Positions 30,598 to 49,579 of a stretch of 64,000 nucleotides of DNA are shown piece after piece (within the stretch, counting starts at the first letter, position 1; every line of letters starts with the position of its first letter). This stretch comes from an uncultured Candidatus Saccharibacteria bacterium (lineage in GTDB: Bacteria; Patescibacteriota; Minisyncoccia; Phycocordibacterales; UBA918). The notes under the pieces are model-generated. The model ran no database searches and was not told the DNA's origin. It worked only from the letters and a program-made list of their open reading frames with translations. A program made the position numbers and the translations under genes. The stretch is taken from contig CAYOAM010000002.1 in assembly GCA_964402035.1 (NCBI GenBank), positions 106,111-170,110 of the forward strand, written 5' to 3'.

Positions 30598-30680
30598 ACG
30601 GGTGAAACTATACCATTCTGGATTTCTAAAGACCAGCGCAGTTAGAATACATCAAGTTAGAGCACGTTTTATGACACTCA

Positions 30681-31142
30681 TCAAGATGTAAATCGCTTTA
30701 AAAGTTCTGAACTCGATTGCACCTTCCCACCACGGCCGACATTAAATACCATTTCTATACCATGTGCACGACACACATCGGTTTCGGGAATATCTTTTTC
30801 ACTTTTGCGATCGCCACCATTTGCAAAAATAGCAGGCTGTATGACTTCAAGTGCTTCGGATACATCACTACGCTCTGATTCCAAAATGTATGTCTCATCA
30901 ACACATGAAAACCCTTCAATAATTTCCGCTCGTTCATCCTGCGGCATAAAAGCTTTTCCCTTTTTCCGAACCAACCAAGAATCACCGTTGAGTATGACAA
31001 CAAGCTTTCCTTCAACACCCACGAGCGCTTTGGCCTCTTCGAACATCCGCAGATGTCCGACATGTACTGGATCAAAACCTCCACTCACAGCAACGGTCTT
31101 ACCAGAATGTTCTTTCGTGGATCGTTTATGGTAATAGCTCAT
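30681..31142 (-). CDS. Cytidylyl/adenylyltransferase-like protein, RfaE-domain-II-like (D-beta-D-heptose-1-phosphate adenylyltransferase-type fold).
   Basis: The nucleotidyltransferase motif GGFDPVHVGHLRMFEEAKALG (HxGH) is present. FANGGD and ...HGIEMVF align with the RfaE-II LVKGGDY and ANGGEV regions. Confidence 0.65.
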   Translation of the reverse strand: MSYYHKRSTKEHSGKTVAVSGGFDPVHVGHLRMFEEAKALVGVEGKLVVILNGDSWLVRKKGKAFMPQDERAEIIEGFSCVDETYILESERSDVSEALEVIQPAIFANGGDRKSEKDIPETDVCRAHGIEMVFNVGRGGKVQSSSELLKRFTS

Positions 31143-31211
31143 ATAGAGTATCGTACCAGTTTAAAACTACTCCAGAAAATCAAAGGTTCCAAGTTTAGTT
31201 AAAAATTAAAC

Positions 31212-31976
31212 TCACAGACCTTCGTTCCCTCCTTTCTCCTTTTTCCAGAACTCAATCAGCGCTTCTGCAAGATAGAAGTCGAGCATAGTATTGATATCAA
31301 CTGACCGCTCACCGGGTACGACATACGGACGTGTCACGATATCATCGGCACCATAGAGTTTTTTGTGCACCATCACAATATCGCGTTTTGATGCATACAC
31401 TGCCCCATTGCGCTTATAGACCGGCATAAGTTTTTGTCGTGTATTTTCTGTCTCATGATAATTTTCGACATACTGCATGAGGCGATCATCTTCGGTAATT
31501 CGCTTTGCTTTTGCGGGATGATGTTCATTGACTTCATAGACACTCATCACTGAATCAGCACCTGTTTCCACGAGCTTTTGCAGTGCACCATCAATATCTT
31601 CGGTTGTCGTAAATGGTGTCGTTGGTTGGAGCATGACCACATGATCAAAGCGAATGCCTTCGAGCGCCTCCAGGGTCTCGACCGCATGCTCGATAACAGG
31701 AAGTGACGGACTTTTGTCTTGCGCCAATTCAGGTGGGCGTTTCAAAGCATGTACTCGATCACCGCCAAGCTGGCGTGACACTTCCAAAATCTCATCATCA
31801 TCTGAAGATACAACTAATTTTGTAATCCACGCACTCTGCGACGCAGCCTCAATCATGTAGCCAATGAGTGGCTTGCCACCCAATGGTCTAATATTTTTTC
31901 TTGGTACACCTTTTGAACCACCTCGAGCGGTGATGATCGCAATAATAGCGGGGCGCTTATTATATTCTTTATCCAT
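31212..31976 (-). CDS. Acylneuraminate cytidylyltransferase family enzyme (CMP-nonulosonic acid synthetase, NeuA/PseF/LegF-like).
   Basis: IAIITARGGSKGVPRKNIRPLGGKPLIGYMIEAA is the CMP-NeuAc synthetase N-terminal signature. Confidence 0.8.
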   Translation of the reverse strand: MDKEYNKRPAIIAIITARGGSKGVPRKNIRPLGGKPLIGYMIEAASQSAWITKLVVSSDDDEILEVSRQLGGDRVHALKRPPELAQDKSPSLPVIEHAVETLEALEGIRFDHVVMLQPTTPFTTTEDIDGALQKLVETGADSVMSVYEVNEHHPAKAKRITEDDRLMQYVENYHETENTRQKLMPVYKRNGAVYASKRDIVMVHKKLYGADDIVTRPYVVPGERSVDINTMLDFYLAEALIEFWKKEKGGNEGL

Positions 31977-31979
31977 AGA

Positions 31980-32927
31980 TTAATGAGTAGCGAGATACGC
32001 TGATAATTTTTTTGCCATAAAAACGTCAGTGCCAATGCGTGAATCATGTGTCAAGCCGCCGGTATGTGGAACGATAATACAATTCTGATGTACTTTAGCG
32101 TATTCAACAAGTGGGTGATTTTTAAACTCTTTCAATAGATCGAGTTCGTGAGCCAATACATCAGTGGCGTAGCCACCAAGCGTTCCCGCTTCTAGCGCAC
32201 GCAACACTGCCGCTTCATCTACAATTTCACCACGTGACGTATTGATAAGTACGGCTGATGGCTTCATCTTTTGTAAGACCTCCTTTGTAAAAAGTCCTTG
32301 CGTATCATCCTTAAGATGCACATGGATTGAAATCGCATCACTTTCCTTGAGCAGTGTCTCAAAATCTACTTTAGTATATTGTGGAAACTCTTCGGGAGAT
32401 ACGTTAGGGTCGCAGAATATAATACGCATACCCCAGCCTGCCGCACCACGTGCAACAATTCTTCCTAAACGTCCCATTCCCAAAATACCAAGTGTCTTGC
32501 CCGACAGGCTTCTGCCACGAAATTCCTCGAGATGCAGTTCATGCCGCTGTATCGAAGCAAATGCCCATGGGTTGTATCGATAGAGATCTATCAGTAAACC
32601 AAATGCGAGCTCCGCTGTACTCGTGATGGTGTTTAAAAATTCATTTTCGCCACGAAGTGATAACACTTCGATACCTCGATCTTTTGCTGATATAAGATCG
32701 AGGTGATTGAGACCCGTGGTAGCCGTTGCGACAGCTCGCAAATTCGCTCCGTTTTTAAGCACCGTATCGTTTACCGAAAGTCCGATACGCACAAAGAGCG
32801 CGTCATACTCAGAAATCCGCGCCTCGAGTTCTTCTTGGGTAAGTTGTACATAATCAACTTCGCCTAGTGCATCAAGCACTGGTCGAGCTTCCGGCGAGAA
32901 ATCAGCAACAGCACAGAGAATCTTCAT
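31980..32927 (-). CDS. D-isomer-specific 2-hydroxyacid dehydrogenase family oxidoreductase.
   Basis: The NAD-binding motif GILGMGRLGRIVA is present, and the conserved catalytic-domain layout matches PGDH / GlyR-like proteins. Confidence 0.75.
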   Translation of the reverse strand: MKILCAVADFSPEARPVLDALGEVDYVQLTQEELEARISEYDALFVRIGLSVNDTVLKNGANLRAVATATTGLNHLDLISAKDRGIEVLSLRGENEFLNTITSTAELAFGLLIDLYRYNPWAFASIQRHELHLEEFRGRSLSGKTLGILGMGRLGRIVARGAAGWGMRIIFCDPNVSPEEFPQYTKVDFETLLKESDAISIHVHLKDDTQGLFTKEVLQKMKPSAVLINTSRGEIVDEAAVLRALEAGTLGGYATDVLAHELDLLKEFKNHPLVEYAKVHQNCIIVPHTGGLTHDSRIGTDVFMAKKLSAYLATH

Positions 32928-33052
32928 ACCTAGAACATGTTTAAAAACCCATCTACTTCGTTGTCTGCGTCGCTCAAACCACTCATCGTATATCGAATAC
33001 TCGTCGGGTTCTCGCTTCTTGACGCCTCGTATCTGTAGTTTTTATCCATGTT

Positions 33053-34042
33053 CTATAAAGCTGACACTTCTTCCCAGTTGTAGATCCACTGATCTTCTGC
33101 GGGGCTCGTCTGATCTTTCTTAGGACTTGCAAATCGGCCGCGGTAATAGTCACGATTTAGTAATTCGACATCGGTCATTGCGCGAGTCTCAGTCCCAATC
33201 ATGACTTCCCAATCTGGACGCTTGGCTAGAATCTGTGCTTTTTGTTCATCCTTCGAGAGTTTGCGAAAATCAGAAAGTTCTTTTAGGAGCATTGGCGTCA
33301 TCGACACCGGACCATCTTTTGTCTCACTAGGAGCAAGTACCGTGTAGTGTCGTTCAACATAATCAGCACCAAGCATGATCGCGGTCTTAGCGGCGATGAT
33401 GTCATTGTCTTCAATCTTGGTGTGATCCGACCATCCAACTTCGGGAGTGTACTGCCGCAGCCACTCCATGCGTGCAAGATTGCACATGGGAAGTGTATTT
33501 GGGTAACTCGTCACACAGTGAAGAAACACAAAACGCTTGCCGAGCTCTTTCATGAGCGCAGCGGTTTTTTCTATCTCTTCATCAAACGTTGCGCCGGTTG
33601 AAATAATAAAATTATCAAAGTGTTCAGCGAGTTCACGCAGCAGTGGGTAGGATGCACAGTCATAGCTAGGCACCTTGATCCAACTTCCCTTCCAGGAAAG
33701 TTTTGCGACATCCTTGATTCTGTGACGCGCAAAAATAGCGGTAAGCGGGATAACATTATTCGCAACACAGGTATCAATAAAAAACTGGTGATCGTCAATG
33801 GAGAGATCGAGCTTTGAAAGACGGTCGACTTCGGCTTGATATGGTCGTTTGATCGCGGTCTGCTTCCCTGTGGAGTCCACCGTCCCTTCCTCAAAACGCT
33901 CACGCTTGGTGACATCCGCTGACCATATCGACTGCATCTTGACCATGTCTGCACCATTCTCTGCTGCGGACTTTATCATCGCTGCCAATGTCTCACGAGA
34001 TCCATTATGGTTTTGGCACACCTCGGCAATTATTTTTGTCAT
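33053..34042 (-). CDS. NeuB-family (N-acetylneuraminate/pseudaminate/legionaminate synthase-like) TIM-barrel aldolase.
   Basis: IIAEVCQNHNGSRETLAAMIKSAAENGADMVKMQ matches the NeuB signature (IAEIG.NHNG....A..LI..A...GAD.VKFQ). I take the start at MTKIIAEV (34042). The C-terminal region does not look like a canonical SAF domain. Confidence 0.7.
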   Translation of the reverse strand: MTKIIAEVCQNHNGSRETLAAMIKSAAENGADMVKMQSIWSADVTKRERFEEGTVDSTGKQTAIKRPYQAEVDRLSKLDLSIDDHQFFIDTCVANNVIPLTAIFARHRIKDVAKLSWKGSWIKVPSYDCASYPLLRELAEHFDNFIISTGATFDEEIEKTAALMKELGKRFVFLHCVTSYPNTLPMCNLARMEWLRQYTPEVGWSDHTKIEDNDIIAAKTAIMLGADYVERHYTVLAPSETKDGPVSMTPMLLKELSDFRKLSKDEQKAQILAKRPDWEVMIGTETRAMTDVELLNRDYYRGRFASPKKDQTSPAEDQWIYNWEEVSAL

Positions 34043-34115
34043 ATTACTTCTAACCATTATGTGACGATAAACGTTGCTTAACGGTACCAAAAAACAAGCC
34101 TTAAAACAACCGCCA

Positions 34116-35285
34116 CTATTTTGCCAGAAATCGATCGGCCATAAGTTGTGCCGACACAGTATTTCCGTTCATAGTACCCCAACGAGACGCGATTTCATCG
34201 CACACTTTTGTACTCTGCTCACGCAACGCGCCCCCCTCCTTGAGAATATCTGCAAGTGGCTGTCCCTCATATACTAGACCAATACCCAGACCAGCCACGG
34301 CGCGATTATTAAAATAGATTTCGGGATCATCTGTTGGATCAAATTTTGGTACTACAAGTGGTGTACCACAAAACATTGAGAGCCAAATAGAGCCCCATCC
34401 TGCACGCGCAAATTGAAACTGTATAGCCGGATTTGGAATGATATGCGGCAATGCTTTTGTCGCACCCTCTACAGCCGTAGTGTCATTTGAATACAAACGC
34501 AAACCTAGCTCTCGTGCTTCTTTATATAGCCGTTCAAGTCCCTCAATGCCGGTAATTGTCACGAAAATACCATCCTCCATTTTTTCAGTACTCGCTTTTG
34601 GAAGGTCGGTAATTGGTGGGACTAAAACCTCACCTGCATAACGCGGAGCATAGGCCTGTTGATCCCACGAAAATGTTGCAGGATACGCCATGAGGTTCAT
34701 ATTTTGCTTGCCTTCGATACTATCGGCCAAAGCGACACCTTGCTTGAGTAGTGCTGGATCAACATCAATAGCATCTCGACCGACCACGAGCGATTGTTCT
34801 AATATTTCTGCAATGTAACCAAAGGTTGTTGAATACGACGGAGCGATATCATAGCGAATACGCGGACTACGATTGATTTCAAGTACGATATTATTCCCAT
34901 CAACGATATGCTTTTCTCCGCCAAAGGTTTCGACCTCAAATGAGTTTTGTAAATGTGTATGTGCTTCATTGCCCACACGATCAGCGTTCTCTATCCAAAA
35001 CTGTAATGTCTCTTCGTACTTTGCTTTTCCGGTATAAAAGATTGACTTCAAGAGAGCTCCCAAAACAGGGACAAGCAAGATTTCTAGAGGATAAGTTGCA
35101 ATATGCGCCCCAAACTCTTCGAGCATGATTGCTTTCTGCTTCTCTCCATACACCCATGGAACGATAACCGGCATCCGCTGTTGCCCACGCTTTTCTAGTT
35201 CGTCGTTAAATGCAATAGCTAACTCGGTGGTGCGCAGGTATGGTCCCGTACCGTAGGCGAAGTTGGTGACAATATAACGAGACAT
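34116..35285 (-). CDS. Hypothetical protein of 389 aa embedded in the nonulosonic-acid-like cluster.
   Basis: I recognised no confident family. There is weak resemblance to GT-B / epimerase-like folds (a Gly-rich stretch AGLGIGLVYEG near the C-terminus). The function is unassigned. Confidence 0.4.
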   Translation of the reverse strand: MSRYIVTNFAYGTGPYLRTTELAIAFNDELEKRGQQRMPVIVPWVYGEKQKAIMLEEFGAHIATYPLEILLVPVLGALLKSIFYTGKAKYEETLQFWIENADRVGNEAHTHLQNSFEVETFGGEKHIVDGNNIVLEINRSPRIRYDIAPSYSTTFGYIAEILEQSLVVGRDAIDVDPALLKQGVALADSIEGKQNMNLMAYPATFSWDQQAYAPRYAGEVLVPPITDLPKASTEKMEDGIFVTITGIEGLERLYKEARELGLRLYSNDTTAVEGATKALPHIIPNPAIQFQFARAGWGSIWLSMFCGTPLVVPKFDPTDDPEIYFNNRAVAGLGIGLVYEGQPLADILKEGGALREQSTKVCDEIASRWGTMNGNTVSAQLMADRFLAK

Positions 35286-35289
35286 ACGA

Positions 35290-37026
35290 CTATAATCGAC
35301 GATAGGTTACGTTCGGAACATGTGCCAACGCATCCTTTTCAAAAAGTGCCCATGTATCGATAAAGAGCACTGATCGTGTGCCTTTTTTCAAAAGTGTACG
35401 GAGATCGAAACGCTCAAAATCTTCATGATTATTCATCACCAAGACGACTGCTGCATCTTTGAATCCGTGCGCTGGAGATTTTACGTGTTTCACCCCGAGG
35501 GCCTCAATCTGCTCGGCAGCAACAACCGGATCAAAACCATGGATGTTGGTGTACCCCATATCGGTCAGCTTTCGAACCAATGCGACGGTCGTTGACCCGC
35601 GCATGTCAGATGTTGCTGGTCGTCCCTTAAATGCAAATCCGAGTACAAAAATCTTTGTTTGTTTTTTTCGTGCATACTCTTCGCCAAGAAATTCAAGGAC
35701 GTCGTCCCCAAGCTGCGTCAGTATGTCTTCGTTAGCCTGACGTGCCGAGCGTGCGATGTTTGGAATATATCCTTTTTCACGTGCACCATGCATCAAGATG
35801 TACGGGTCTTTCTCGAGACAATACCCCCCAACACCCGGTGACGGTTTTGGCACATTACTGCGCGGATAGCCCATATTTGCCGCACGAATTACTTCGTTGG
35901 TATCAATACCCCATTTCTGACAAATCAGCGAAACTTCATTCGCAAAACCAAACATCACATCGCGATACGTATTGTTGATGAGCTTTACCATTTCAGCTTC
36001 TTCAAGTGTATCGACTATGAGTGTCGAATTTGTCATCCGCCCAAAAAGCGCAGCAGCCGCAGTTGCACTCGCACGATTGATGCCACCAATGACTTGTGGA
36101 AGTGTACGGAGTTCTTGAAGCGCCTTCCCTTCTATCGTGCGCTCCGGAGCAAACGCAACAAAAAAATCTTCCCCCGCGACAAGTCCTGATTTCTTTTCCA
36201 AAAGCGGGATGACGACTGAACGAGTAGTACCCAATGGTACGGTGGAGCGGAGCACGACAAGATCACCCCGCTTCAACGCACCACCAATCGTATTCGTAGC
36301 AGCCTTAAGATGATCCAATTGCGGACGTTTCTTCGCATCAAGCGGGGTCCCCACTGCGATAAAATACACTTCACATTTATTTTTTTCATCAAAATTATCG
36401 ACCATCTTAAAGCGATTGCCGCCATATTGGCGCAAGAGTGGTGGCAGACCATCTTCAAAAAATGGCGCCTGCTTTGCTTTGATTTTTTTCTTCACCTCAG
36501 GATTGGTATCAAATGCATGTACGTCAAATCCCAAATCGGCAAATGTAAGGCCGAGTGTAAGCCCTACATACCCAAGTCCCAAAACACCGATGCGCTTGTA
36601 AGAAACATCACTACCATGCCACACATCAAAAAACGAAAGTACATTGAGCACTCGCTTTTTTGCATCAACAATTATTATTTTTTCAAGTCGTGTCTTATGC
36701 AATTGTTCATCACGAACCTTACTTGTGACCAAAGCAATGATTTCAGTATTTGAAAGTGGTCCCTCGATAACAAACGGCTTTGCATTCATAATCTCAGTAA
36801 CTGGCGCATCAAATGAAATCGAATCGGCTAAGGCACGATTGAGGTCACCATGAGTGATAATACCCAAAAGGACATTATCCTTCCCAACGACAAGAGCGAT
36901 GCCAGCAGGAAATCCTGTTTTTGCTGGTTTATGCGTGGCAAAAAGTCGAACCACGTCTTGTACGGTCGATTTCGGCGAAAGGCTGATGGCGGCCAAATCC
37001 TCTGCTGTTTTGATATCTGGTTTCAT
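35290..37026 (-). CDS. CBS-pair domain fused to a UDP-glucose/GDP-mannose dehydrogenase-family nucleotide-sugar dehydrogenase.
   Basis: The N-terminal roughly 145 aa has two CBS-like modules (GIALVVGKDNVLLGIITHGDL, KIIIVDAKKRVLNVLSFFD). The Rossmann fold GVLGLGYVGLTLGLTFADLG follows, then the dehydrogenase core including the catalytic-Cys region GGYCLEKDPY. Confidence 0.8.
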   Translation of the reverse strand: MKPDIKTAEDLAAISLSPKSTVQDVVRLFATHKPAKTGFPAGIALVVGKDNVLLGIITHGDLNRALADSISFDAPVTEIMNAKPFVIEGPLSNTEIIALVTSKVRDEQLHKTRLEKIIIVDAKKRVLNVLSFFDVWHGSDVSYKRIGVLGLGYVGLTLGLTFADLGFDVHAFDTNPEVKKKIKAKQAPFFEDGLPPLLRQYGGNRFKMVDNFDEKNKCEVYFIAVGTPLDAKKRPQLDHLKAATNTIGGALKRGDLVVLRSTVPLGTTRSVVIPLLEKKSGLVAGEDFFVAFAPERTIEGKALQELRTLPQVIGGINRASATAAAALFGRMTNSTLIVDTLEEAEMVKLINNTYRDVMFGFANEVSLICQKWGIDTNEVIRAANMGYPRSNVPKPSPGVGGYCLEKDPYILMHGAREKGYIPNIARSARQANEDILTQLGDDVLEFLGEEYARKKQTKIFVLGFAFKGRPATSDMRGSTTVALVRKLTDMGYTNIHGFDPVVAAEQIEALGVKHVKSPAHGFKDAAVVLVMNNHEDFERFDLRTLLKKGTRSVLFIDTWALFEKDALAHVPNVTYRRL

Positions 37027-37116
37027 AAGAATGGTGTATACAGCCTATAACCTATAGAGATATGGATCTGTTACAGGGGAAAACCGATTAAAACATAGGG
37101 GGGCCGAAACGACAAC

Positions 37117-37944
37117 TTATTTGGTTCCAACCAAAAAATGAGACTGTGCAAACAGGGCATTGGTTTTGTACGGATATTTTTGGAATATACGTCTTAAACG
37201 GACAATGAACAAGAAGAACTTGGTGAGTGCGCGATCAGTAGTCATGCGTATCGGAATAAAAAATGGGAATGGAAATGTGCGCATCGTATACACGTCTTTG
37301 AATCCTGCACCCTTTGCCAGTACCTCATAGTTTTTTGGTGTAAGACTATTTCTAAAATAGTCCTTCCGAACGTCACCATGGTAGGTACCCAATAACTTTT
37401 TCACCGTACGCATGACAATATTAAGGTATTGTATTGAAAATTTCTTCGGTATATTGAGCGACACCATAACACCGTTGGGGCGCAAGATGCGGTATTGCTC
37501 TTTAAGTAACGCTTCGATCTCATGCCCTTCAAAATGTTCAGCAAGTCCAATCGATACTACCGCATCAAAACTATTGTCAGGGAAATGGGTCTTGAGTACG
37601 TCCTCGACAAAAAACTCAGCGTCAAGGTTATGCTGTTTAAATTCAGCTTTCGCGAGCACGATAGCACTTTCGACATTATCAAGCAGTGATACTTTGAGAC
37701 CCATATGCTTGCGCATATAGAGACCAATCGTGCCGCGACCACAACCGATCTCAAGAACATCGTGTGCCTTGTGTGCAAGAAGCTCGTGCTTGATCCACTC
37801 AAAGTAATGAAAGAGATTGAACTGCCGTTGTGTCTGCGGCATATTGCCAACATCAACAAAAATAGATTTTTCTTCGGTATTGTCTCTACCCTTGTCTTCT
37901 TCATTGATAGAAGACCACTTCGCGTCAAATGCAGGCTCACTCAT
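37117..37944 (-). CDS. Class I SAM-dependent methyltransferase.
   Basis: Motif I VLEIGCGRGTIGLYM is present, with a post-I acidic residue (LLDNVE). Confidence 0.75.
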   Translation of the reverse strand: MSEPAFDAKWSSINEEDKGRDNTEEKSIFVDVGNMPQTQRQFNLFHYFEWIKHELLAHKAHDVLEIGCGRGTIGLYMRKHMGLKVSLLDNVESAIVLAKAEFKQHNLDAEFFVEDVLKTHFPDNSFDAVVSIGLAEHFEGHEIEALLKEQYRILRPNGVMVSLNIPKKFSIQYLNIVMRTVKKLLGTYHGDVRKDYFRNSLTPKNYEVLAKGAGFKDVYTMRTFPFPFFIPIRMTTDRALTKFFLFIVRLRRIFQKYPYKTNALFAQSHFLVGTK

Positions 37945-37960
37945 AGATCACTATACTACC

Positions 37961-39316: not shown

Positions 39317-39324
39317 GAAGCGGT

Positions 39325-40014
39325 CTACGTTGCCTTTCGTTTGAGAATAAAGAGTACTTTGTTACCAAAGAGCGACGGCGGTAGAAATCGAATTTTAAAT
39401 GGAAGCAATGGGAGTTTCAAAAATGAATTTCCTGGAATTTCCTTTACCAATTCAAACTGTCTATAAAAGCATTTTCCGAATACTTCTTTTGGCAACACCA
39501 TAATATGATCGTTGTGCGCGGTGTACCCATCAAGATTTCCACCAAACAAAAAATTGAACTTAGATTTCATGTTGTAGATATATGGCAGCGTCACCAAGAG
39601 ATACCCTCCTGGTTTTAAAACGCGCGCGCACTCCCGGGCAAAATGAAACGCATTTTCGACATGCTCCAAAAACGCCAGCCCAGTAACTACATCCATCGAT
39701 CCGTCTGCAAACGATAGTTTTTCACTATTGATATTTGTTTGTGAAAAACCGCCGAGATCTGCAAGCTTGATATCAGAAAGATAATTCTGCAAATCTGCCC
39801 CATGTAGGTGTTTATACCCTTCCTTTTTTAGATCCGCAAGAAATGCACCACCACCTGCCCCGATATCAAGGATGCGTGCATCTTTAGATACTATGCGCGC
39901 AAGTTCACCGACAGCAACGCCTTCGCGGGATGCCCAACTCACTTTGTCGGCATAGTATGCCTTGTAATCGCTATTTTTCTCCGAAATATTTTCCGGCGTA
40001 CGGTATACGGGCAT
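39325..40014 (-). CDS. Class I SAM-dependent methyltransferase.
   Basis: Motif I ILDIGAGGGAFLADL is present. It is 229 aa. Confidence 0.75.
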   Translation of the reverse strand: MPVYRTPENISEKNSDYKAYYADKVSWASREGVAVGELARIVSKDARILDIGAGGGAFLADLKKEGYKHLHGADLQNYLSDIKLADLGGFSQTNINSEKLSFADGSMDVVTGLAFLEHVENAFHFARECARVLKPGGYLLVTLPYIYNMKSKFNFLFGGNLDGYTAHNDHIMVLPKEVFGKCFYRQFELVKEIPGNSFLKLPLLPFKIRFLPPSLFGNKVLFILKRKAT

Positions 40015-40020
40015 AGGTAA

Positions 40021-41403
40021 TTAATTATTTAATATCTTTTCTACAACACTGAAAAAACGTTCTCCTGATCGTCCATCGTACTTGTAACAAAAGGTTTCAA
40101 GCAGATGTTTCCGTTCAGTGCTCTTATAGGTCGCGTCGGTCAAATACTGATTGATGGCATTGTACAACATTTCCTTGTTTTGAACCTCAGTGGTTGCTTT
40201 AAAGGAGAGTATCTTGCTGTAGTAATACGTCTCATACCACCTTCTGATAGAGCTCCGATACGGCTTTTGAATATAGCCGTCAAACATAATGCTGATGACA
40301 GGAGTATCAAACGGCAACACATCAAGCGTAAGAGACGAGTGTACGTTGATATCGATATCTGTGTGATAAATGGTATTAAGAAACCTATCCATTGATGCAG
40401 TAGAATAATCCCACTCATCGCGAAAAGCGCGCGACGGTTCATTCTGCAGATCAACAACAACGTCAGGTTTTCCAAACAAATGCTTAAATTTCTGTTCGTC
40501 CTGTTTAAATCCATAGTGCGGTCGAATCAAGAGCTGGCACGGCTGCTCTAAGAGCCCCTTCTCAATTGCAGTATATATAACCGACGAAAGCTCACTATCC
40601 TCTTTAAATAATTTTCCCTCTGACGTAAACAGCAAGATTTTTTTCTTTGGATCTAAACCGTACGCAGCACAAAAGGCTTCACGTGTCTGTAACCGTGTGC
40701 TGTCTATATAATAATCAAACTGCGGTACCCCAATGATGCTGATCTGTGCATCCGAATAATTTTGAAATTTCTTCATCTCTTCGGCCATAAGGGTATTCCA
40801 TACGATGACCATGTCCGCCTTCGCACGAAACCCATTTTTATTTGGATTATCCCAACTTTTTGGCATAGCGAGAGAATACACGCGCTCCCGCCTAGCAGCT
40901 TTGAGGAGCGCAGCCTCAGCGTCATCTCCCATATTGGTCACAATAACCATATCGGCTTTTTGCTCACGCAAAAAATGCTGCCAGTGACTGACAGCAGGCC
41001 GCTGCGCAAAGTAAAAATCAAGCACTCGGACAAAATCTCGCAGTATGGTGACGCGCGAGAGAACAGAAAATATAACTTTCTTTATGAAATAAATGGGATA
41101 GAAAACTCGCATGGATTTTGGATCTCCAATAATTCCCCATCGGGCTTTTTGATTGACCGTCGAATTGTAGATCAAGTATTTATGGAAAAAGAAAAGAATT
41201 AAATCAAGTGGCCCTCGATCGAGCACCTCCTGATCAAACATCTCCACGTTCGCATGTGCGAATTCCTTCAGAAAACGTGGATCCTCAAACGCTGGTGTCA
41301 CCAACAAAACACGATACTTCTCGCGAAGTAATCGATAGAAATCATTCTGCAAAATATTACGTGCTATAGATCCACGCGAAATTGTTAGCACGACCGTTTT
41401 CAT
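40021..41403 (-). CDS. GT-B-like glycosyl / glycerophosphotransferase-family protein (TagF/KpsS-like), paralog B.
   Basis: See 37961-39316. Confidence 0.45.
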   Translation of the reverse strand: MKTVVLTISRGSIARNILQNDFYRLLREKYRVLLVTPAFEDPRFLKEFAHANVEMFDQEVLDRGPLDLILFFFHKYLIYNSTVNQKARWGIIGDPKSMRVFYPIYFIKKVIFSVLSRVTILRDFVRVLDFYFAQRPAVSHWQHFLREQKADMVIVTNMGDDAEAALLKAARRERVYSLAMPKSWDNPNKNGFRAKADMVIVWNTLMAEEMKKFQNYSDAQISIIGVPQFDYYIDSTRLQTREAFCAAYGLDPKKKILLFTSEGKLFKEDSELSSVIYTAIEKGLLEQPCQLLIRPHYGFKQDEQKFKHLFGKPDVVVDLQNEPSRAFRDEWDYSTASMDRFLNTIYHTDIDINVHSSLTLDVLPFDTPVISIMFDGYIQKPYRSSIRRWYETYYYSKILSFKATTEVQNKEMLYNAINQYLTDATYKSTERKHLLETFCYKYDGRSGERFFSVVEKILNN

Positions 41404-42299
41404 ACAGTTGTGCTGTTTTGCTTGCCATATGCCTGCCCTGGCGGTAGTTGTTGCGGAGAAAGTGAGGCGTCGAGCATGAGCGTCAACGTATCTCGGTACC
41501 CTCTTTTGGCATAATTTCCTTTGTGAATTACCTTGTCACTAAAAATAAGGAGTGTACCTGCAGCTCCGGTCACCTTATACGTTTCATATCCGTTTCGTAG
41601 ATACTCTTCAATCACTTCTTTTGGAACTCTTCCATTTGGGTATCGCGGTGGATATGTCGACGGTACATAGACAGGCTCCTTCGTTTCTTTGTGACGGAGG
41701 TACTCAAACGGTGCATTCTCTTCGGTAACATCATTGAGATAAAGCATCACCTTCATCTCACTATCAAAGTGGTGATCGGTATGCCACAACGTTGAGGATT
41801 TTTCCTCAAGAGTACATGCCAGAACGCGTGCAATATCGGACAGCACGATCTGGGCATGAGAGCCATACACACGCTCCTCAATTTGAGGAAATAAAAATGA
41901 CACATATTCTTTTAAGTACGGTAGATCAAATGCACTGCGAACCTTTACGTTGCGAACAGTACCACGCTGTATCTCAGCCTGCAGTTTCTTTTCATCAAAT
42001 TGCAATAGATTATTGAGGACACCATCCCCTGTCTCAACGAGACGGCACTCAGGTATCGTAAGTCGTTGCCGTATCTCAGCATACATACCCTCTACGATAT
42101 GCGAGTAGTTCTCCGGAAATCTAATCAGCGATCCTCCAAGTGAAGGGTGAGCCACCTGTACACCAAGAGTCATAGGTCCCCTATAGAGAGGTGCTTCTTT
42201 TCGGTGTCTGATGCGATACCAAAAACGAGCGAGTACATAGCGCACTCCACTATGCCATTTTCGAATATTGAGAATTATGTTTTTGCGACTCACCTGCAT
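41400..42299 (-). CDS. Fe(II)/2-oxoglutarate-dependent dioxygenase, phytanoyl-CoA dioxygenase (PhyH)-like.
   Basis: WHTDHHFD supplies the HxD facial-triad part, and a distal His lies in KVIHKGNYAKRG. Size and layout fit the PhyH-like family. Confidence 0.5.
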   Translation of the reverse strand: MQVSRKNIILNIRKWHSGVRYVLARFWYRIRHRKEAPLYRGPMTLGVQVAHPSLGGSLIRFPENYSHIVEGMYAEIRQRLTIPECRLVETGDGVLNNLLQFDEKKLQAEIQRGTVRNVKVRSAFDLPYLKEYVSFLFPQIEERVYGSHAQIVLSDIARVLACTLEEKSSTLWHTDHHFDSEMKVMLYLNDVTEENAPFEYLRHKETKEPVYVPSTYPPRYPNGRVPKEVIEEYLRNGYETYKVTGAAGTLLIFSDKVIHKGNYAKRGYRDTLTLMLDASLSPQQLPPGQAYGKQNSTTV

Positions 42300-42300
42300 A

Positions 42301-42978
42301 TTATTCTTTTATAATGTAATACTTTCCCGTGCTTACATCTCGCTTTATATTCTTTATACGATCGCCAAAAAATTCATCAATTGCTTTCTGTGCGCCGGGA
42401 TACTTCGTATGCTCAGTTGTATTCAGATACTCATCAAACAAGATAATTCCTCCCGGGGCTACTTTTGGATACAACATACGCAACGGATCTTTGTATGATT
42501 CGTAGAGATCTCCATCAAGATGCAAAAGTGCAATCCCCTCTCCGCGATACTTTGAAAGGCTTTCATTAAAAAAACCTTTAATGAGGGTGATTTGAGATCG
42601 GACGAATTCTACAGGCAGTCCCGCAGAAACAAAAAAAGCGGTCACCGATTCAATACTGTGCAAATCTTTATCACCTTTCTTTACATTTCTAATGCTCTGA
42701 TCTTCCTTAACAGGCTCAGGAAATCCGGCAAATGAATCAAAGCCCCAGATTTTTCTTCGACTGCCTTCGTCATGAGTCAAAAATGCAAGCATGAGTACGC
42801 TTCGTCCACGACCAACACCACACTCGACAATATCACCCTTGATATTGTGTACGATATCAAGCATGCGCTTCAAATAGAGAAATTTTGCTGCATTTGTGAG
42901 ATTGAAGGGATGGACATAACTTGACGGTGCATGATCTGCATTTCTGATACGTCGTATGATTGCATGTATATAATTCAT
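42301..42978 (-). CDS. TylF/MycF-family (macrocin O-methyltransferase-like) SAM-dependent methyltransferase.
   Basis: GDIVECGVGRGRSVLMLA, FDSFAGFPEP and LLHLDGDLYESYKDPL follow the PF05711 sequence pattern. Confidence 0.7.
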   Translation of the reverse strand: MNYIHAIIRRIRNADHAPSSYVHPFNLTNAAKFLYLKRMLDIVHNIKGDIVECGVGRGRSVLMLAFLTHDEGSRRKIWGFDSFAGFPEPVKEDQSIRNVKKGDKDLHSIESVTAFFVSAGLPVEFVRSQITLIKGFFNESLSKYRGEGIALLHLDGDLYESYKDPLRMLYPKVAPGGIILFDEYLNTTEHTKYPGAQKAIDEFFGDRIKNIKRDVSTGKYYIIKE

Positions 42979-43016
42979 ATGGGGGTATTATCGTATAACA
43001 GCGGCCGTGGGGCAAC

Positions 43017-44372
43017 TTATAACCATCCAAACAACCGCGTACGTAGTTGTGCAAGTAGCACTCTATCGTGCTCGTCAAAGCGAACCAATGCCTTCCAATC
43101 GAGTAGCGAAAAATGTAGACGAGTAATGAGGACATACTCCCTAAATGCTCCATTGAGGAAACTCACGAGCAAGGAGGAGAGTATCACTCCACGGGCACCA
43201 AATAGCAGGATACATACGAGCTGAGAGACCGCAGACATCACCGATGAGGCAAGACTAAGAGCAAAATTCAATTTTTGTTTCTTGAGGCTATAGAGCACAG
43301 CCGACTGACCGAGCGTTAAGACGTCTATAAATATGCGCAGCATAGCAAGGTCAATCAACATAACCGCAGCACCATATTGTGGGGAAAAAATATCTATGAC
43401 TGGCCTGATAAAAAGGACGACTCCAAAATAGAACACAATTGCAATCATCATGCTGTATTTTTTTACCTTCGTTGCGATGACAATCGCCAACTCCTTACTC
43501 GTCGCTATACTATGCGACAAGATGGGAAAGAGTGTCCCTCGAACCGGAAAGAGCGCACCAAAGATACTGCTCACCTTTTGTGCAAACGCTACAATCGCAA
43601 CACTCTCTGTCGATACCAAAAAATTGACGAGCCAAGGACCAATGTTGTCGGTGATAGTAAGCGACAAACTCGAAAACATTTCCCATTTCCCATGCTTGCG
43701 TACGATATTCATTAAAATACCTCGGTACTCGCGAATGACTTCAGCTTCATGAGGAAACAGATGCGCCACCCCAAATATGCTCACAGACGCGGTAACACAT
43801 TTTGCGATGACATATGCCCAGAGTACCGAATGCAAAGAAAAACCAATCCATAGATACAAACTGCACACCGCAATCGTACGAATCAATGCCTCTCCAGTCT
43901 TTTGTGCCAATGAAAAATCAAAACGCTCATAGGCTTCAAACACCACCGATGTCAGATTGAGAACCACCTGCCCAATAATAAGAAACACCAGCGCCCAATA
44001 GAATGGGGTCAAGTTTGCATCATAGTAGTGCGATATCCCCTCTTTAAAGAGCCACGAAACAGCGAAGAGAAGCACAAGTACTACCGCAACAGCAACACTG
44101 TACTCACGAACCAGTTCTTTGATACGACCAAACTCTTTTTGTGCTCGATACACGGCGATATCCGCAACCATCAGTCGATCCATACCCATAAGCGCAATCA
44201 CGGTGCCGGGTGATATAACCGTAAAAAGCAAGTGCAGCAGCCCAAAGTCCTTTAGAGATAATTCGTTGACGATGACAAAAAAAGACACCAGCGAAAAGAG
44301 ATGCGTACTCACCTGCTCAAGTGCATTGAGCGCCACGCCGCCTAAAATTCGCCGTTTTAATGTAGCAACCAT
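43017..44372 (-). CDS. Wzx-like polysaccharide / oligosaccharide flippase (MOP superfamily).
   Basis: The 451-aa protein has about 12 predicted TM helices and a Wzx-type organisation. Confidence 0.7.
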   Translation of the reverse strand: MVATLKRRILGGVALNALEQVSTHLFSLVSFFVIVNELSLKDFGLLHLLFTVISPGTVIALMGMDRLMVADIAVYRAQKEFGRIKELVREYSVAVAVVLVLLFAVSWLFKEGISHYYDANLTPFYWALVFLIIGQVVLNLTSVVFEAYERFDFSLAQKTGEALIRTIAVCSLYLWIGFSLHSVLWAYVIAKCVTASVSIFGVAHLFPHEAEVIREYRGILMNIVRKHGKWEMFSSLSLTITDNIGPWLVNFLVSTESVAIVAFAQKVSSIFGALFPVRGTLFPILSHSIATSKELAIVIATKVKKYSMMIAIVFYFGVVLFIRPVIDIFSPQYGAAVMLIDLAMLRIFIDVLTLGQSAVLYSLKKQKLNFALSLASSVMSAVSQLVCILLFGARGVILSSLLVSFLNGAFREYVLITRLHFSLLDWKALVRFDEHDRVLLAQLRTRLFGWL

Positions 44373-44377
44373 GTTCG

Positions 44378-45259
44378 TTAATCGTTGCGGGGCGCACCCG
44401 ATGATTTTTGTCCGCGCATATGTCGATAGAGCTGTATGAAGCGGTAATATCCAATATAGGCACTATATCGCGCATTACGAGCCACCTGGCTTATCGGCAT
44501 AGATCTCTGATAACCATGCCGCATATAGAGCCATAAAGAATAGAGGATAATATAGATCGCGCGCGCAAAATTTTCGCCTATGCTCGAGAGTAGATTCCAT
44601 GGACGTGGTTTCTTGTATAACTCATCCGAAAACATGCGCGTACGTACAATATCAAGATACCGATTATCTTTTGCAATCGACGCTTGGTAGGTACCGGGTG
44701 CGTAACTCCAGATCGGATGTGTTAGCGTTTCTATCGTGACATGATCAGGAGCAACAACACTCTCGTGAATTGTTTTCCCCGGGATCAAGGCAACGCCACT
44801 TTTCGGTGCATACAAGCGTATTAAGTATGAGGGATACGAATAGGCATACTCTGCTTTATGAGTTCCGAATATAACTTTATTCTGTATTTGATACGCGGTA
44901 TTCATGCTAGGTTTTTTTGAAAAAATAGCTCGAATCTCATCGGTCAATGCAGGCGAAAGATACTCGTCTGAGTCAAAATCGAGTAGCCATTCAGTCTTGA
45001 TCATGCTGTACGCGCGATTGCGAACCGCGGTAAAATCCTTGATGCGCACATTTGGCTCATCACTATCTACCTGTTTATAAATAGGGCGTCCGTATTTCTT
45101 CGCAATCTCATGTGTTCGATCCGTGCTGTTGCCATCAACAATAAATACATCTTCAAAGTCGACAAGACTCGCAAGGCACTGATCGAGATTCTTTTCCGCA
45201 TTAAGCGTCAATATAGGAACAGAGCAAGGGATTTTCTGCATATTATTTTTTGACCGCAC
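44378..45259 (-). CDS. Family 2 glycosyltransferase.
   Basis: The N-terminal region VPILTLNAEKNLDQCLASLVDFEDVFIVDGNSTDRT is a GT-A fold with the DxD-region characteristic of GT2. Confidence 0.8.
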   Translation of the reverse strand: MRSKNNMQKIPCSVPILTLNAEKNLDQCLASLVDFEDVFIVDGNSTDRTHEIAKKYGRPIYKQVDSDEPNVRIKDFTAVRNRAYSMIKTEWLLDFDSDEYLSPALTDEIRAIFSKKPSMNTAYQIQNKVIFGTHKAEYAYSYPSYLIRLYAPKSGVALIPGKTIHESVVAPDHVTIETLTHPIWSYAPGTYQASIAKDNRYLDIVRTRMFSDELYKKPRPWNLLSSIGENFARAIYIILYSLWLYMRHGYQRSMPISQVARNARYSAYIGYYRFIQLYRHMRGQKSSGAPRND

Positions 45260-45974
45260 AAATCACCGTTTCCGCACAGAGACGTGGATCTACCTCAAAG
45301 CCAACTTTATAAAATCCTTCAATCATATCTTCCGATAACTCCAACATCTTTGCATTTGGAAAGGGCTTCAAAAACACTCCCGCATGATGTGCGACCTCTA
45401 AACCGGACGCCTCAACATCGGCACGCAACGTGTCAAAAGTATACACCAGTTGATGATTAAACATTTCGCGATCACGCGCAGACAGTTCAGTAGCGTCTTT
45501 CACAATCTCCATAGCTTTCCCTACGCGTCGATGGAGTGAAAGTCCATTGTGCGATGTAATAAAGATAAAACCACCGGGCGTTAGCCACGATGAGATCGTC
45601 TTGAGAAACGCTATCGGATCTTTGAGTGCTGGCAGAACACCCGCAAGCAAAATAGTGTCGTATTTTTTTGATGGCTTAAAATTCTCAAAAAAAGAGTGGT
45701 GGAACGATGCCCGAGTATATTCCTCTGGAAATGCACGCCTGATCCGCTCAGCGGTAAAAAGCACTTGCTCCTCTGAGGCGTCCACAACATCAAGAGACGC
45801 CGTGTTTGGAAACACCCACTCCGTCATGAGTCCTGTCGCACACCCTAACTCGAGAGTGTCACCGAGATTCTCACGGTATTTCCACAGTTCGTTGCACTTA
45901 TATTTCAAAAGGTACCGATCAAAATCTTTCTCGTTGTCGTACCGCGCAGCGTATGACTCATAATCGAAGGTCAT
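45243..45974 (-). CDS. Class I SAM-dependent methyltransferase.
   Basis: Motif I TLELGCATGLMTEW is present. It overlaps the GT2 gene by 17 nt. Confidence 0.7.
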   Translation of the reverse strand: MTFDYESYAARYDNEKDFDRYLLKYKCNELWKYRENLGDTLELGCATGLMTEWVFPNTASLDVVDASEEQVLFTAERIRRAFPEEYTRASFHHSFFENFKPSKKYDTILLAGVLPALKDPIAFLKTISSWLTPGGFIFITSHNGLSLHRRVGKAMEIVKDATELSARDREMFNHQLVYTFDTLRADVEASGLEVAHHAGVFLKPFPNAKMLELSEDMIEGFYKVGFEVDPRLCAETVICAVKK

Positions 45975-47083
45975 GCCGTTTCCTTAAAAAACTCCTTGAT
46001 CGTATCGGTGACAAAGAGTACCTGCGCGTACGTAAGCTCCGCATACATTGGGAGCGACAGAATTCTTCGCGCAAGCGTTTCAGTGTGTGGAAACGCCCCT
46101 TCAGCATACCCCAGATGGCGGTACGGTTGTGCAAGATGAATCGGGTTTGGATAATGAATACCTGTATGGATATCATGCTCCTTCAGGTACGCCTGCAGTT
46201 GGTCGCGTCTCCCGGTTTGTATGACAAAAAGATGGTAATTCCCCTTTGAATAAGAAGGCTCAATCGGCAACGCCACATCACCGACACCCATAAGGAGACG
46301 CGCGTAGGTTCTCGCGTGCGTACGACGCATTTCATTCCACGCATCAAGATGCGGAAGTTTGACCCCAAGAACTGCTCCTTCGATTCCGCTCATACGAAAA
46401 TTCCCACCAAGCACCTCGTGCGTGTACTTCACCCTACTTCCATGATCTCGCATGAGACGCACGCGATCTGCGAGAGCAGCATCGTCGGTTGCGATAGCAC
46501 CACCTTCTCCGTATGTTCCCAAATTTTTCCCTGCATAAAAACTAAAAGTACTTGCAGTACTCCCACCACCGATCTTTGTCCCTTTGTATAGTGTACCGTG
46601 AGCCTGCGCTGCATCTTCGAGGAGAAAAATATTCTTTTCTGCTGCGAGCGCCCGGAGCGGGTCAAGGTCAACGGACTGCCCGTAGAGATGCACAGGCATG
46701 ATCGCTTTTGTGCGCGCAGTGATCTTCTCGCGAACTCGCAATGCATCTATATGGTAGGTAACCGGATCCACATCCACAAAGACCGGTGTAGCTCCAACGA
46801 ATGAGATTGCGGCTGCGGTCGCAATAAACGTGTGTGCTGGAATAATTACTTCGTCACGCGGACCAATATCGAGCGCGCGCAAGACAAGCTGAATCGCATT
46901 TGTGCCGTCAGAGACAGCAACCACATGTCCAACTCCCAAGTACTCCTGAAACGCTTTCTCGAAGGCGGCAACGGCTGGCCCCGACGCATACGCCGAAGTA
47001 TCGAGGATGTGATGAATTGCTTCATCAATATCCTTTTTTATAGATTGATATTGGGCTTGTAAATCAAGAAATGGTACGTGCAT
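45971..47083 (-). CDS. DegT/DnrJ/EryC1/StrS-family PLP-dependent sugar aminotransferase.
   Basis: The protein covers the whole family fold. The PLP-lysine region FSFYAGKNLGTYGEGGA matches the DegT pattern SF..(T/G)K.....(E/D)GG. Confidence 0.85.
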   Translation of the reverse strand: MHVPFLDLQAQYQSIKKDIDEAIHHILDTSAYASGPAVAAFEKAFQEYLGVGHVVAVSDGTNAIQLVLRALDIGPRDEVIIPAHTFIATAAAISFVGATPVFVDVDPVTYHIDALRVREKITARTKAIMPVHLYGQSVDLDPLRALAAEKNIFLLEDAAQAHGTLYKGTKIGGGSTASTFSFYAGKNLGTYGEGGAIATDDAALADRVRLMRDHGSRVKYTHEVLGGNFRMSGIEGAVLGVKLPHLDAWNEMRRTHARTYARLLMGVGDVALPIEPSYSKGNYHLFVIQTGRRDQLQAYLKEHDIHTGIHYPNPIHLAQPYRHLGYAEGAFPHTETLARRILSLPMYAELTYAQVLFVTDTIKEFFKETA

Positions 47084-47119: not shown

Positions 47120-47164
47120 CAACCTTTAAAAAAGAAAACCCCCGCAGCGCGTAGTGGCTGCGGG
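47120..47164 (-). terminator. Rho-independent terminator on the minus strand: stem ccccgcagc/gctgcgggg with an 8-nt loop, then UUUUCUUUUUUAAAGG.
   Basis: Stem complementarity and a U-tract seen on the minus-strand RNA. It is a near-identical copy of the element at 48016-48067. Confidence 0.7.
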
Positions 47165-47172
47165 GAGTGTTA

Positions 47173-47970: not shown

Positions 47971-48015
47971 AGAACAACCTTTTTGTTGTAAGGATTATGC
48001 TGTTTGGATTATAAC

Positions 48016-48067: not shown

Positions 48068-48093
48068 GAAGGGTTGGAGACGGTTGCGTAATA

Positions 48094-49497: not shown

Positions 49498-49579
49498 TTT
49501 GTCCTCCGTGACAAATGTGAATGTGACAAAAAAACAAAGAGCCGAAAGGCTCTCTAACCGGGCGGCATTATGCCATATG

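Follow-up and report, generated by a model that had tools for sequence, protein, structure and literature searches.

Gene content and borders of the locus

The window analysed here is a 64,000-nucleotide stretch of contig CAYOAM010000002.1 (NCBI GenBank assembly GCA_964402035.1, positions 106,111 to 170,110 of the forward strand) from an uncultured Candidatus Saccharibacteria bacterium. We examined a block of genes at positions 30681-47083 of this window, which an earlier note, made from the sequence alone, had described as a 17-kb glycan island with a nonulosonic-acid-like core and many methylation, hydroxylation and tailoring genes. Nonulosonic acids (NulOs) cap many microbial surfaces, where they shape charge, phage recognition and host interaction. 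To our knowledge, only a handful of routes to these sugars are known, namely those leading to neuraminic (Neu), legionaminic (Leg) and pseudaminic (Pse) acid and to their epimers. Judged from its gene families and their conservation, the block is probably a cell-envelope glycan operon whose core (31212-37026) makes a cytidine monophosphate (CMP)-activated 3-deoxy-2-ulosonic sugar other than Neu, Leg or Pse.

The open reading frame (ORF) list places 16 genes in the block, all on the minus strand and running in one direction with overlaps or gaps of at most 126 bp; with the adjoining Wzy_C-TPR gene included (28399-47083), the co-directional series comprises 17 genes (Table 1). The region described in the earlier note is thus real, with a size of 16.4 kb rather than 17 kb. 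Its base composition is not that of an island, the GC fraction being 0.43-0.46 inside the block and 0.42-0.52 outside. A strong hairpin and the T-run after it, found a short way upstream of the DegT gene, support the view that a transcription unit starts at the upstream border, as well as the separation of the DegT-led unit from a further glycan block upstream. This hairpin is the only element that we used from a promoter and terminator scan of the region, in which total site counts were not above chance.

Scans with Pfam and NCBIfam recovered every gene that had been listed, on the minus strand and with essentially the function assigned to it, including the export genes of Wzx and Wzy type and four class-I methyltransferases, one of them TylF-type. 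Three genes had been overlooked, encoding two TagB-like transferases and a GT-B-fold protein. One assignment was too specific: the supposed heptose-type adenylyltransferase proved to be merely a generic HIGH-motif cytidylyl/adenylyl-transferase.

Table 1. Features of the glycan block and its borders, listed from high to low position in the window
Feature	Position	Strand	Match or basis
Intrinsic-terminator-like hairpin	47139-47166	-	10 pairs (8 G-C), then TTTTCTTTTT; in the 90-bp gap upstream of the DegT gene
DegT-family pyridoxal phosphate-dependent aminotransferase, sugar C3-aminotransferase type	45971-47083	-	Pfam DegT, 398 bits
Class-I S-adenosylmethionine (SAM) methyltransferase, 1 of 4	45243-45974	-	Methyltransf_23/12/11; no NCBIfam equivalog
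GT2 glycosyltransferase	44378-45259	-	Glycos_transf_2, 42.5 bits
Wzx-type (MOP/Polysacc_synt) flippase	43017-44372	-	PF01943, 57.4 bits (cut-off 28.2)
TylF-type O-methyltransferase, 2 of 4	42301-42978	-	PF05711, 118 bits
PhyH-like Fe(II)/2-oxoglutarate dioxygenase (weak)	41400-42299	-	PF05721, 27 bits (cut-off 22)
TagB/TagF-like GT-B transferase	40021-41403	-	Glyphos_transf, 44.9 bits (cut-off 22.1)
Class-I SAM methyltransferase, 3 of 4	39325-40014	-	Methyltransf_11, 61 bits
Second TagB/BFO_1060-like transferase	37961-39316	-	No Pfam match; BFO_1060 model, 41.2 bits (cut-off 200)
Class-I SAM methyltransferase, 4 of 4	37117-37944	-	Methyltransf_25, 76 bits
Core: CBS pair fused to nucleoside diphosphate (NDP)-sugar 6-dehydrogenase	35290-37026	-	CBS and three UDPG_MGDP_dh domains; TIGR03026, 355 bits
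Core: GT-B-fold NDP-sugar-binding protein, proposed NDP-sugar hydrolase	34116-35285	-	AlphaFold2 and Foldseek fold only
Core: SAF-less NeuB-family phosphoenolpyruvate-condensing synthase, 329 amino acids	33053-34042	-	PF03102, 142.6 bits (cut-off 22.1)
Core: D-isomer-specific 2-hydroxyacid dehydrogenase, phosphoglycerate-dehydrogenase-like	31980-32927	-	PF02826, 162 bits; PDB 1wwk, 150 bits
Core: CMP-ulosonate synthetase (NeuA/PseF family)	31212-31976	-	PF02348, 89.4 bits (cut-off 22.6)
Small HIGH-motif cytidylyl/adenylyl-transferase, outside the conserved cassette	30681-31142	-	PF01467, 44 bits
Wzy_C and TPR-repeat fusion	28399-30597	-	PF04932, 69.5 bits, plus TPR matches

A NeuB-family synthase without a SAF domain

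The synthase at the centre of the core is a member of the NeuB family and not an enzyme of the KDO8P or DAHP type. Its start was placed at the ATG at 34042, 16 codons downstream of the TTG at 34090 that opens the mechanically called ORF, since the database protein and all homologues begin MTKII. As the earlier note had remarked, no SAF domain is matched in Pfam, and an AlphaFold2 model (predicted local distance difference test score, pLDDT, of 94) likewise has helices, and no beta-clip SAF domain, after its TIM barrel. The best Foldseek matches of this model are NeuB, SpsE and PseI, at E values of 1e-18 to 1e-14, whereas DAHPS and KDO8PS are reached at 1e-9 or worse with 12-16% identity. Residues that serve metal binding or catalysis in NeuB are kept (E25, K53/Q55, K129, the His of the SDH motif and E234-R-H236 in N. 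meningitidis numbering), and the aligned NeuB positions are invariant across 23 family members. The position of NeuB E134 is occupied by Asp, a swap reported in some environmental NeuB proteins; the same large phylogeny records SAF-less environmental members of the family, to which no function is given (PMC8208679).

Within the NeuB family, the protein stands apart from the named subfamilies. It scores 140.5 bits against the NeuB equivalog model (TIGR03569, cut-off 399.65) and 106 bits against that for PseI (TIGR03586, cut-off 340.25). Members of its own family are at least 47% identical across phyla and share a C-terminal DYYRGRFA motif, and they are ~26% identical to canonical, SAF-type NeuB paralogues that lie beside the cassette in 13 loci. 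These canonical neighbours are often accompanied by a true NeuC and a second CMP-synthetase, and since such a set stands beside the cassette in several of the 13 loci, the cassette does not merely duplicate the Neu pathway. A tblastn search of plasmids with the synthase returned relatives of at most 31% identity, which are canonical NeuB and PseI, and nothing closer.

The CMP-synthetase gave a comparable result. Its score against the PseF model TIGR03584 is 146 bits (cut-off 205.7), the KdsB models give 23-44 bits (cut-offs 155-281), and its closest solved relatives are CMP-NulO synthetases (PDB 6ifd, 130 bits; 1eyr, 94 bits). When CMP-synthetases were clustered, those adjoining the dehydrogenase formed no cleanly separate clade. 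Neither a KDO8P/DAHP-type synthase nor a KdsB-type synthetase, the alternatives that the earlier note had raised against its own reading, was found. The nonulosonic-acid-like core it proposed therefore stands at the level of families, with a NeuB-family synthase and an enzyme of the CMP-ulosonate synthetase family. In contrast, assignment to a Leg, Pse or Neu subfamily does not, as every equivalog model (NeuB, PseI, PseF, PseC and LegC) falls far below its cut-off.

Conservation of the cassette across phyla

A scan of a genome collection yielded 80 loci with synthase homologues 47-84% identical to the window protein. These span Patescibacteria, Thaumarchaeota, Woesearchaeota, Bacteroidota, Rhodothermales, Planctomycetota (Scalindua), Acidobacteriota, Elusimicrobia and several Proteobacteria, and the core genes find their closest homologues in metagenome-assembled genomes of Patescibacteria/Paceibacteria. 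Neighbours were counted by clustering all flanking ORFs in the 43 loci that extend at least 5 kb to both sides. A CMP-synthetase, fusions counted, lies near the synthase in 39 of these 43 loci and the CBS-fused dehydrogenase in 34, while the TagB/TagF-like transferase family is represented in 24, the 2-hydroxyacid dehydrogenase in 18 and a fusion protein containing a LarA-like racemase in 5. One or other of the last two is found in 23 loci, and 21 of those also encode the CBS-dehydrogenase. Look-ups starting from the CBS-dehydrogenase return the same partner genes as look-ups from the synthase, and minimal cassettes in Bacteroidota consist of a GT-B protein, the dehydrogenase, the CMP-synthetase, the 2-hydroxyacid dehydrogenase and the synthase. 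Across the 80 loci, the DegT, GT2, Wzx, PhyH and small cytidylyltransferase genes are not conserved partners of the synthase. The two dehydrogenases, listed in the earlier note as separate members of the block, are indeed present, and their tight linkage to the synthase across phyla identifies both as core genes rather than tailoring genes.

The CBS-dehydrogenase is closest to UDP-ManNAc (uridine diphosphate-N-acetylmannosamine) dehydrogenases (PDB 4r16, 208 bits), yet it scores below every equivalog cut-off. It shares with WecC, Cap5O and WbpA a three-domain architecture and the catalytic Cys motif, and differs from them in its N-terminal CBS pair, its sub-cut-off scores and the dedication of its gene to a NeuB-type cassette. 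The 120 best homologues listed for it are all full length, at about 520-590 amino acids. The catalytic Cys is retained in the motif GGYCLEKD, so that oxidation to the carboxylate, not to the aldehyde, is expected. We considered a dehydrogenase that stops at the aldehyde and feeds an aldolase directly, and dropped this idea because the motif is intact.

The 2-hydroxyacid dehydrogenase occupies a position that is filled differently in archaea. Bacterial loci carry the string dehydrogenase, CMP-synthetase, 2-hydroxyacid dehydrogenase; in five loci of Thaumarchaeota (L070, L071, L072, L076 and L079), a LarA-like racemase fused to the CMP-synthetase replaces the 2-hydroxyacid dehydrogenase. The fusion of L079 (10943-12907) is a 654-amino-acid protein that joins a PseF-like CMP-ulosonate synthetase (146 bits) to a LarA-type nickel-pincer racemase, and the fusion adjoins the NeuB-like synthase and the CBS-dehydrogenase. 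Its LarA part is closest to the malate racemase Mar2 (6d6z), with the GTHR and GGGK motifs kept. Like the lactate and malate racemases and epimerases of the LarA family, it has retained the motifs with the cofactor-binding Lys and the catalytic His; unlike them, it forms one protein with a CMP-ulosonate synthetase and would act on a sugar acid. The window contains no such LarA homologue, the slot being filled there by the 2-hydroxyacid dehydrogenase. Both 2-hydroxyacid dehydrogenases and LarA-type enzymes act on R-CH(OH)-COOH. An ordinary ulosonic acid has an alpha-keto-acid end only and no free alpha-hydroxy-acid, whereas one derived from a uronate adds such a group at C8-C9. Since two unrelated classes of alpha-hydroxy-acid enzyme occupy one slot, we adopted an ulosonic acid derived from a hexuronic acid as the working model. 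In a previous thaumarchaeal study, NeuA/NeuB are mentioned apart from a LarA family protein, which is interpreted there as a lactate racemase (PMC8397731).

Several further genes accompany the core in individual loci. Between the CBS-dehydrogenase and the 2-hydroxyacid dehydrogenase, tandem CTP_transf_3 paralogues are present in L086 (three, at 8625-10780) and in L087 (two, at 8656-10149). A gene for an EamA transporter is also found in L086 and L084. In L084, the gene right after the 2-hydroxyacid dehydrogenase encodes a thiamine pyrophosphate-dependent enzyme that could be a decarboxylase of an alpha-keto-acid product. An AsnB-type glutamine amidotransferase lies beside the cassette in six loci (L013, L038, L053, L042, L058 and L062); that of L053, the sole member scanned, matches TIGR01536 at 414 bits. 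Such an enzyme might amidate the sugar carboxylate or form an acetamidino group.

Four mutually exclusive families beside the synthase

The GT-B-fold protein has no sequence match in Pfam, NCBIfam or the PDB, and its family is annotated 'hypothetical' throughout, with no precomputed Pfam domain. Its AlphaFold2 model (pLDDT 93) is matched by Foldseek to GT1 glycosyltransferases, at an E value of about 1e-11 and template modelling (TM) scores of 0.55-0.6. PseG was considered as the closest fold and set aside, because the GT1 enzymes come first and both PseG and MurG fall outside the top 50. By hhalign (probability 93%), the family is remotely homologous over its full length to a Bacteroidota family that has a weak Glyco_tran_28_C match and supplies the first gene of the Bacteroidota cassette.

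In most loci, the GT-B gene lies directly upstream of the synthase. Where it is missing, its place tends to be taken by another family: one of four families stands beside the synthase in 39 of the 43 loci, and two occur together in only one. The four are the GT-B protein of the window, the Bacteroidota GT-B protein, a HAD phosphatase and, in Thaumarchaeota, a CbiR/xylose-isomerase-like TIM-barrel protein. Loci with the HAD phosphatase sometimes add a ManC-like GDP-mannose (guanosine diphosphate-mannose) pyrophosphorylase beside the dehydrogenase. In known pathways, the free sugar is released by enzymes of GT-B fold (NeuC/LegG and PseG). Given their mutual exclusion, we read the four families as a case of non-orthologous displacement at one step, most simply the one that would set the sugar acid free from its activated form.

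Comparison with known pathways

The cassette resembles the Neu pathway (NeuC/NeuB/NeuA) in its phosphoenolpyruvate-dependent NeuB-family synthase with catalytic residues, in its CTP_transf_3 CMP-synthetase and in the GT-B protein encoded immediately before the synthase, as NeuC is in Neu clusters. It differs in that the synthase lacks SAF and is ~25% identical to NeuB, the GT-B protein is not an Epimerase_2 member, and the Neu pathway has no counterpart of the NDP-sugar 6-dehydrogenase and 2-hydroxyacid dehydrogenase; in several relatives, the canonical Neu genes form a separate set. No Epimerase_2 match (NeuC, TIGR03568) was found in the 17 genes of 28399-47083 or in the 10 genes upstream.

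With the Pse and Leg pathways, the proposed route would share the series of NDP-sugar modification, free-sugar release, phosphoenolpyruvate condensation and CMP activation, and PseG is also an NDP-sugar hydrolase of GT-B fold. NulO clusters of the Pse and Leg kind are, moreover, often rich in tailoring enzymes. In contrast to these pathways, the cassette has no 4,6-dehydratase, C4-aminotransferase or N-acetyltransferase, and oxidation at C6 is implied instead of 6-deoxygenation and amination. For the NDP-HexNAc (N-acetylhexosamine) 4,6-dehydratase (PseB/LegB), we obtained no SDR, Epimerase or Polysacc_synt_2 match in 28399-57036, and the Pfam and NCBIfam scans of the block found neither a Pse/Leg-type N-acetyltransferase nor a NeuC or PseG equivalog. 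Taken together, these comparisons suggest that the cassette is a nonulosonic-type CMP-sugar pathway that differs in its precursor chemistry.

Proposed pathway

We propose the following order of steps, which the gene families make plausible. The CBS-dehydrogenase would oxidise C6 of an NDP-hexose or NDP-N-acetylhexosamine to give an NDP-uronate, and the GT-B protein, as a putative hydrolase, would free the uronic acid from its nucleotide. The SAF-less synthase would then join the uronate to phosphoenolpyruvate, yielding a nine-carbon 2-ulosonic acid with a second carboxyl at C9. The 2-hydroxyacid dehydrogenase would work on the hydroxyl beside this new carboxyl, so that C8 is oxidised or epimerised, and the NeuA-like enzyme would produce the CMP-sugar. 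Transfer of the sugar would fall to the two TagB/BFO_1060-like proteins. The four methyltransferases and the PhyH-like dioxygenase may tailor this sugar or neighbouring residues, while the glycan would be put together by the GT2 enzyme, flipped by Wzx, and polymerised or ligated by the Wzy_C-TPR protein.

The product of this pathway would be dicarboxylic, a non-2-ulosaric acid such as the 9-oic acid of Kdn (3-deoxy-D-glycero-D-galacto-non-2-ulosonic acid) or of N-acetylneuraminic acid (Neu5Ac), with C8 further oxidised or epimerised. We put this structure forward tentatively, and hold it with clearly less confidence than the pathway type itself. We found no literature report of a non-2-ulosaric class of sugars in prokaryotic glycans. 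SugarBase records unassigned CMP-sugars and a 'higher-carbon' ulosonic acid in Magnetospirillum, with nothing tied to these genes.

Several observations weigh against the proposal. The 2-hydroxyacid dehydrogenase or LarA is missing from about half of the loci, and the CBS-dehydrogenase is missing within 8 kb in 9 of 43. The substrate of the dehydrogenase is not fixed by sequence, all equivalog models scoring below cut-off, and the block contains no gene for a precursor NDP-sugar (Epimerase_2 or ManC). The GT-B protein is more like GT1 transferases than like PseG or MurG, and may be a transferase, not a hydrolase. In addition, a NeuC equivalog (346-363 bits, cut-off 236) is encoded upstream of the dehydrogenase, directly in L084 and L087 and one gene removed in L086; the GT-B homologue of L087 precedes a canonical, SAF-type NeuB; and no NeuB is visible in L086, which encodes the dehydrogenase, three CMP-synthetases, the 2-hydroxyacid dehydrogenase and the GT-B protein. 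Given the arrangements in these three loci, oxidation may be either early, on the NDP-sugar, or late, on the CMP-sugar, and the SAF-less synthase may be dispensable for the dehydrogenase module. Finally, we found no published description of the cassette in the literature, and the proposal draws on comparative genomics alone.

Alternative explanations

Part of this evidence would suit a different division of labour, in which the dehydrogenase makes a UDP-HexNAcA (N-acetylhexosaminuronic acid) such as UDP-ManNAcA or UDP-GlcNAcA as a building block, the GT-B protein adds it to the glycan, and the synthase independently turns a neutral or phosphorylated aldose into an ulosonic acid, Kdn-like or otherwise, which the TagB-like enzymes put on the uronic residue. 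The kinship of the dehydrogenase with UDP-ManNAc dehydrogenases and the match of the GT-B model to GT1 transferases are both consistent with this arrangement, and it has a precedent in Tannerella forsythia, whose TagB-like NulO transferases use a ManNAcA acceptor, Pse or Leg being carried on ManNAcA in the O-glycan (PMC5420450). The HAD phosphatases of some loci could then be ulosonate-9-phosphate phosphatases, and the NeuC equivalogs in L084, L086 and L087 would yield free ManNAc, with no other hydrolase needed. However, a separate acceptor sugar leaves unexplained why the GT-B protein, the HAD phosphatase and the TIM-barrel phosphodiesterase-like protein exclude one another in 39 of 43 loci, and why the 2-hydroxyacid dehydrogenase or the LarA::CMP-synthetase fusion is linked to the dehydrogenase; the minimal five-gene cassettes of Bacteroidota, moreover, resemble one sugar-nucleotide pathway. 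We regard this explanation as viable but less likely than our own.

A teichoic-acid-like polymer is a weaker contender. Here the small cytidylyltransferase would make CDP-glycerol (cytidine diphosphate-glycerol) or another CDP-alcohol, one or both TagF-like proteins would add alditol-phosphate, and the NeuB cassette would be a side decoration. The Glyphos_transf match of the first TagB/TagF-like protein points this way, as does the weak similarity of the cytidylyltransferase to TagD and ethanolamine-phosphate cytidylyltransferase, and in this organism a CDP-alcohol is possibly used by one of the TagF-like paralogues. Yet the cytidylyltransferase has a homologue beside the cassette in only 1 of 80 loci, against 24 of 43 for the TagF-like genes, its TagD score is 40.5 bits against a cut-off of 165.4 (TIGR01518), and the TagF-like proteins match the NulO-transferase model BFO_1060, so that we consider such a polymer improbable. 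Less probable still, and in our judgment scarcely tenable, is the reading from which the earlier note began, namely a Leg, Pse or Neu cluster with extra methylation and hydroxylation. The Pfam matches to NeuB, CTP_transf_3 and DegT fit it, and the best sub-threshold NCBIfam matches bear these names. Nevertheless, all equivalog scores lie far below their cut-offs, the DegT protein is a C3-type aminotransferase, and no 4,6-dehydratase, PseH/LegH, PseG or NeuC/LegG is encoded in the block; on these grounds, the block is not a Leg, Pse or Neu cluster. The divergence of the synthase from the canonical NeuB paralogues with which it co-occurs argues the same.

If the dicarboxylic product is correct, such a sugar would form part of the cell surface in Patescibacteria, ammonia-oxidising Thaumarchaeota, Bacteroidota, anammox Planctomycetota and others. 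A fourth nonulosonic route with its own synthase clade would extend the known chemistry. The cassette has spread widely by gene transfer through bacteria and archaea and is particularly frequent among the ultra-small Patescibacteria, about whose surface chemistry very little is known. Such a route would also supply annotation rules for thousands of genes now named 'sialic acid synthase', 'UDP-ManNAcA dehydrogenase' or 'hypothetical protein', and would point to a testable substrate for the CMP-synthetase::LarA fusion of marine ammonia oxidisers.

Probable transfer, tailoring and export genes

The two TagB-like proteins are paralogues that form one BLAST family and have WD, GxPxxD and RPH motifs in common. 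They are only remote relatives of the BFO_1060/Tanf_01245 family of T. forsythia, the first scoring 52.8 bits against the BFO_1060 model NF046086 (cut-off 200; see Table 1 for the second). They resemble that family in being TagB/TagF-like GT-B proteins encoded beside a CMP-ulosonate pathway, and relatives of BFO_1060 are genetically verified Pse/Leg transferases of T. forsythia (PMC5420450). The two proteins are candidate transferases for the CMP-activated sugar.

The DegT aminotransferase is best matched in the PDB by DesV (2oga, 347 bits), QdtB (312 bits) and WbpE (231 bits), with only 127 bits for PseC (2fn6). It scores 260.9 bits against the PseC model TIGR03588 (cut-off 423.5) and 208.6 bits against the LegC model TIGR04181 (cut-off 420). 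A DegT homologue lies near the NeuB-like gene in just 4 of the 43 complete loci. The enzyme probably serves a separate 3-amino-sugar branch, in which it may pair with GFO/IDH/MocA oxidoreductases and a GNAT-DegT fusion encoded upstream. We also considered a 2,3-diamino-uronic route of WbpA/B/E type, formed by the dehydrogenase, the DegT enzyme and the upstream GFO genes. Such a route is possible in this organism, but given the rarity of DegT beside the cassette it is not the conserved role of the dehydrogenase.

The number of methyltransferases in the block had been called unusual in the earlier note; four is indeed the count, only slightly above that of related loci, as at least one is present in 21 of 43 and the maximum within 8 kb is three. 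Homologues of the TylF-type enzyme adjoin the cassette in 4 related loci and in L086, and those of the third methyltransferase are found in 9 related loci. The PhyH-like protein keeps the HxD...H motif (WHTDHH ... VIHKG), and a weak homologue is encoded directly upstream of the CBS-dehydrogenase in L086.

The small cytidylyltransferase scores 62 bits against RfaE domain II (cut-off 181), and its best PDB matches, both weak, are ethanolamine-phosphate cytidylyltransferase and TagD. Homologues of the Wzy_C-TPR protein are encoded downstream of the cassette in 10-12 related loci, and also in L087; the protein may be a polymerase, a ligase or an O-oligosaccharyltransferase, roles with which its sequence is equally compatible. 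Among the genes scanned in 23666-59011, none matched Bac_transf or Glycos_transf_4, the families searched for an initiating polyprenyl-phosphate glycosyl-phosphate transferase.

Neighbouring regions of the window

A second co-directional block, glycan- or cyclitol-like, lies at 47173-58031, upstream of the terminator hairpin. It encodes an NTP-transferase (nucleoside triphosphate transferase) fused to an AroB/DHQS-like sugar-phosphate cyclase (55162-57036; aroB 257 bits, below the cut-off of 305), an APH/homoserine-kinase-like kinase, an NTP_transf_3 enzyme, the fusion of GNAT with a partial DegT domain, and a 467-amino-acid protein of unknown function. Two GFO/IDH/MocA oxidoreductases, one of them resembling UDP-GlcNAc-3-dehydrogenase or inositol dehydrogenase, a weak His_Phos_1 protein and a divergent gene of the IMPase family are also present. 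This block could specify a cyclitol or aminocyclitol pathway or a 3-amino-sugar pathway.

Three large, probable surface proteins are encoded at 1752-15833, of 945 amino acids (three LamG domains), 3204 amino acids (LVIVD repeats and a beta-helix) and 523 amino acids (fn3). The earlier note had suggested that the glycan may decorate adjacent surface proteins, and these three are candidate glycoproteins, although nothing observed ties them to the glycan: the giant LVIVD/beta-helix and LamG proteins (1752-14190) lie more than 14 kb from the locus, behind GatB, SecA, MurB and other genes. Between MurB and the Wzy_C-TPR gene, we also found a gene of the F420-0:gamma-glutamyl ligase family (27541-28335; PF01996, 112 bits), which is unexpected in a reduced genome of Patescibacteria type.

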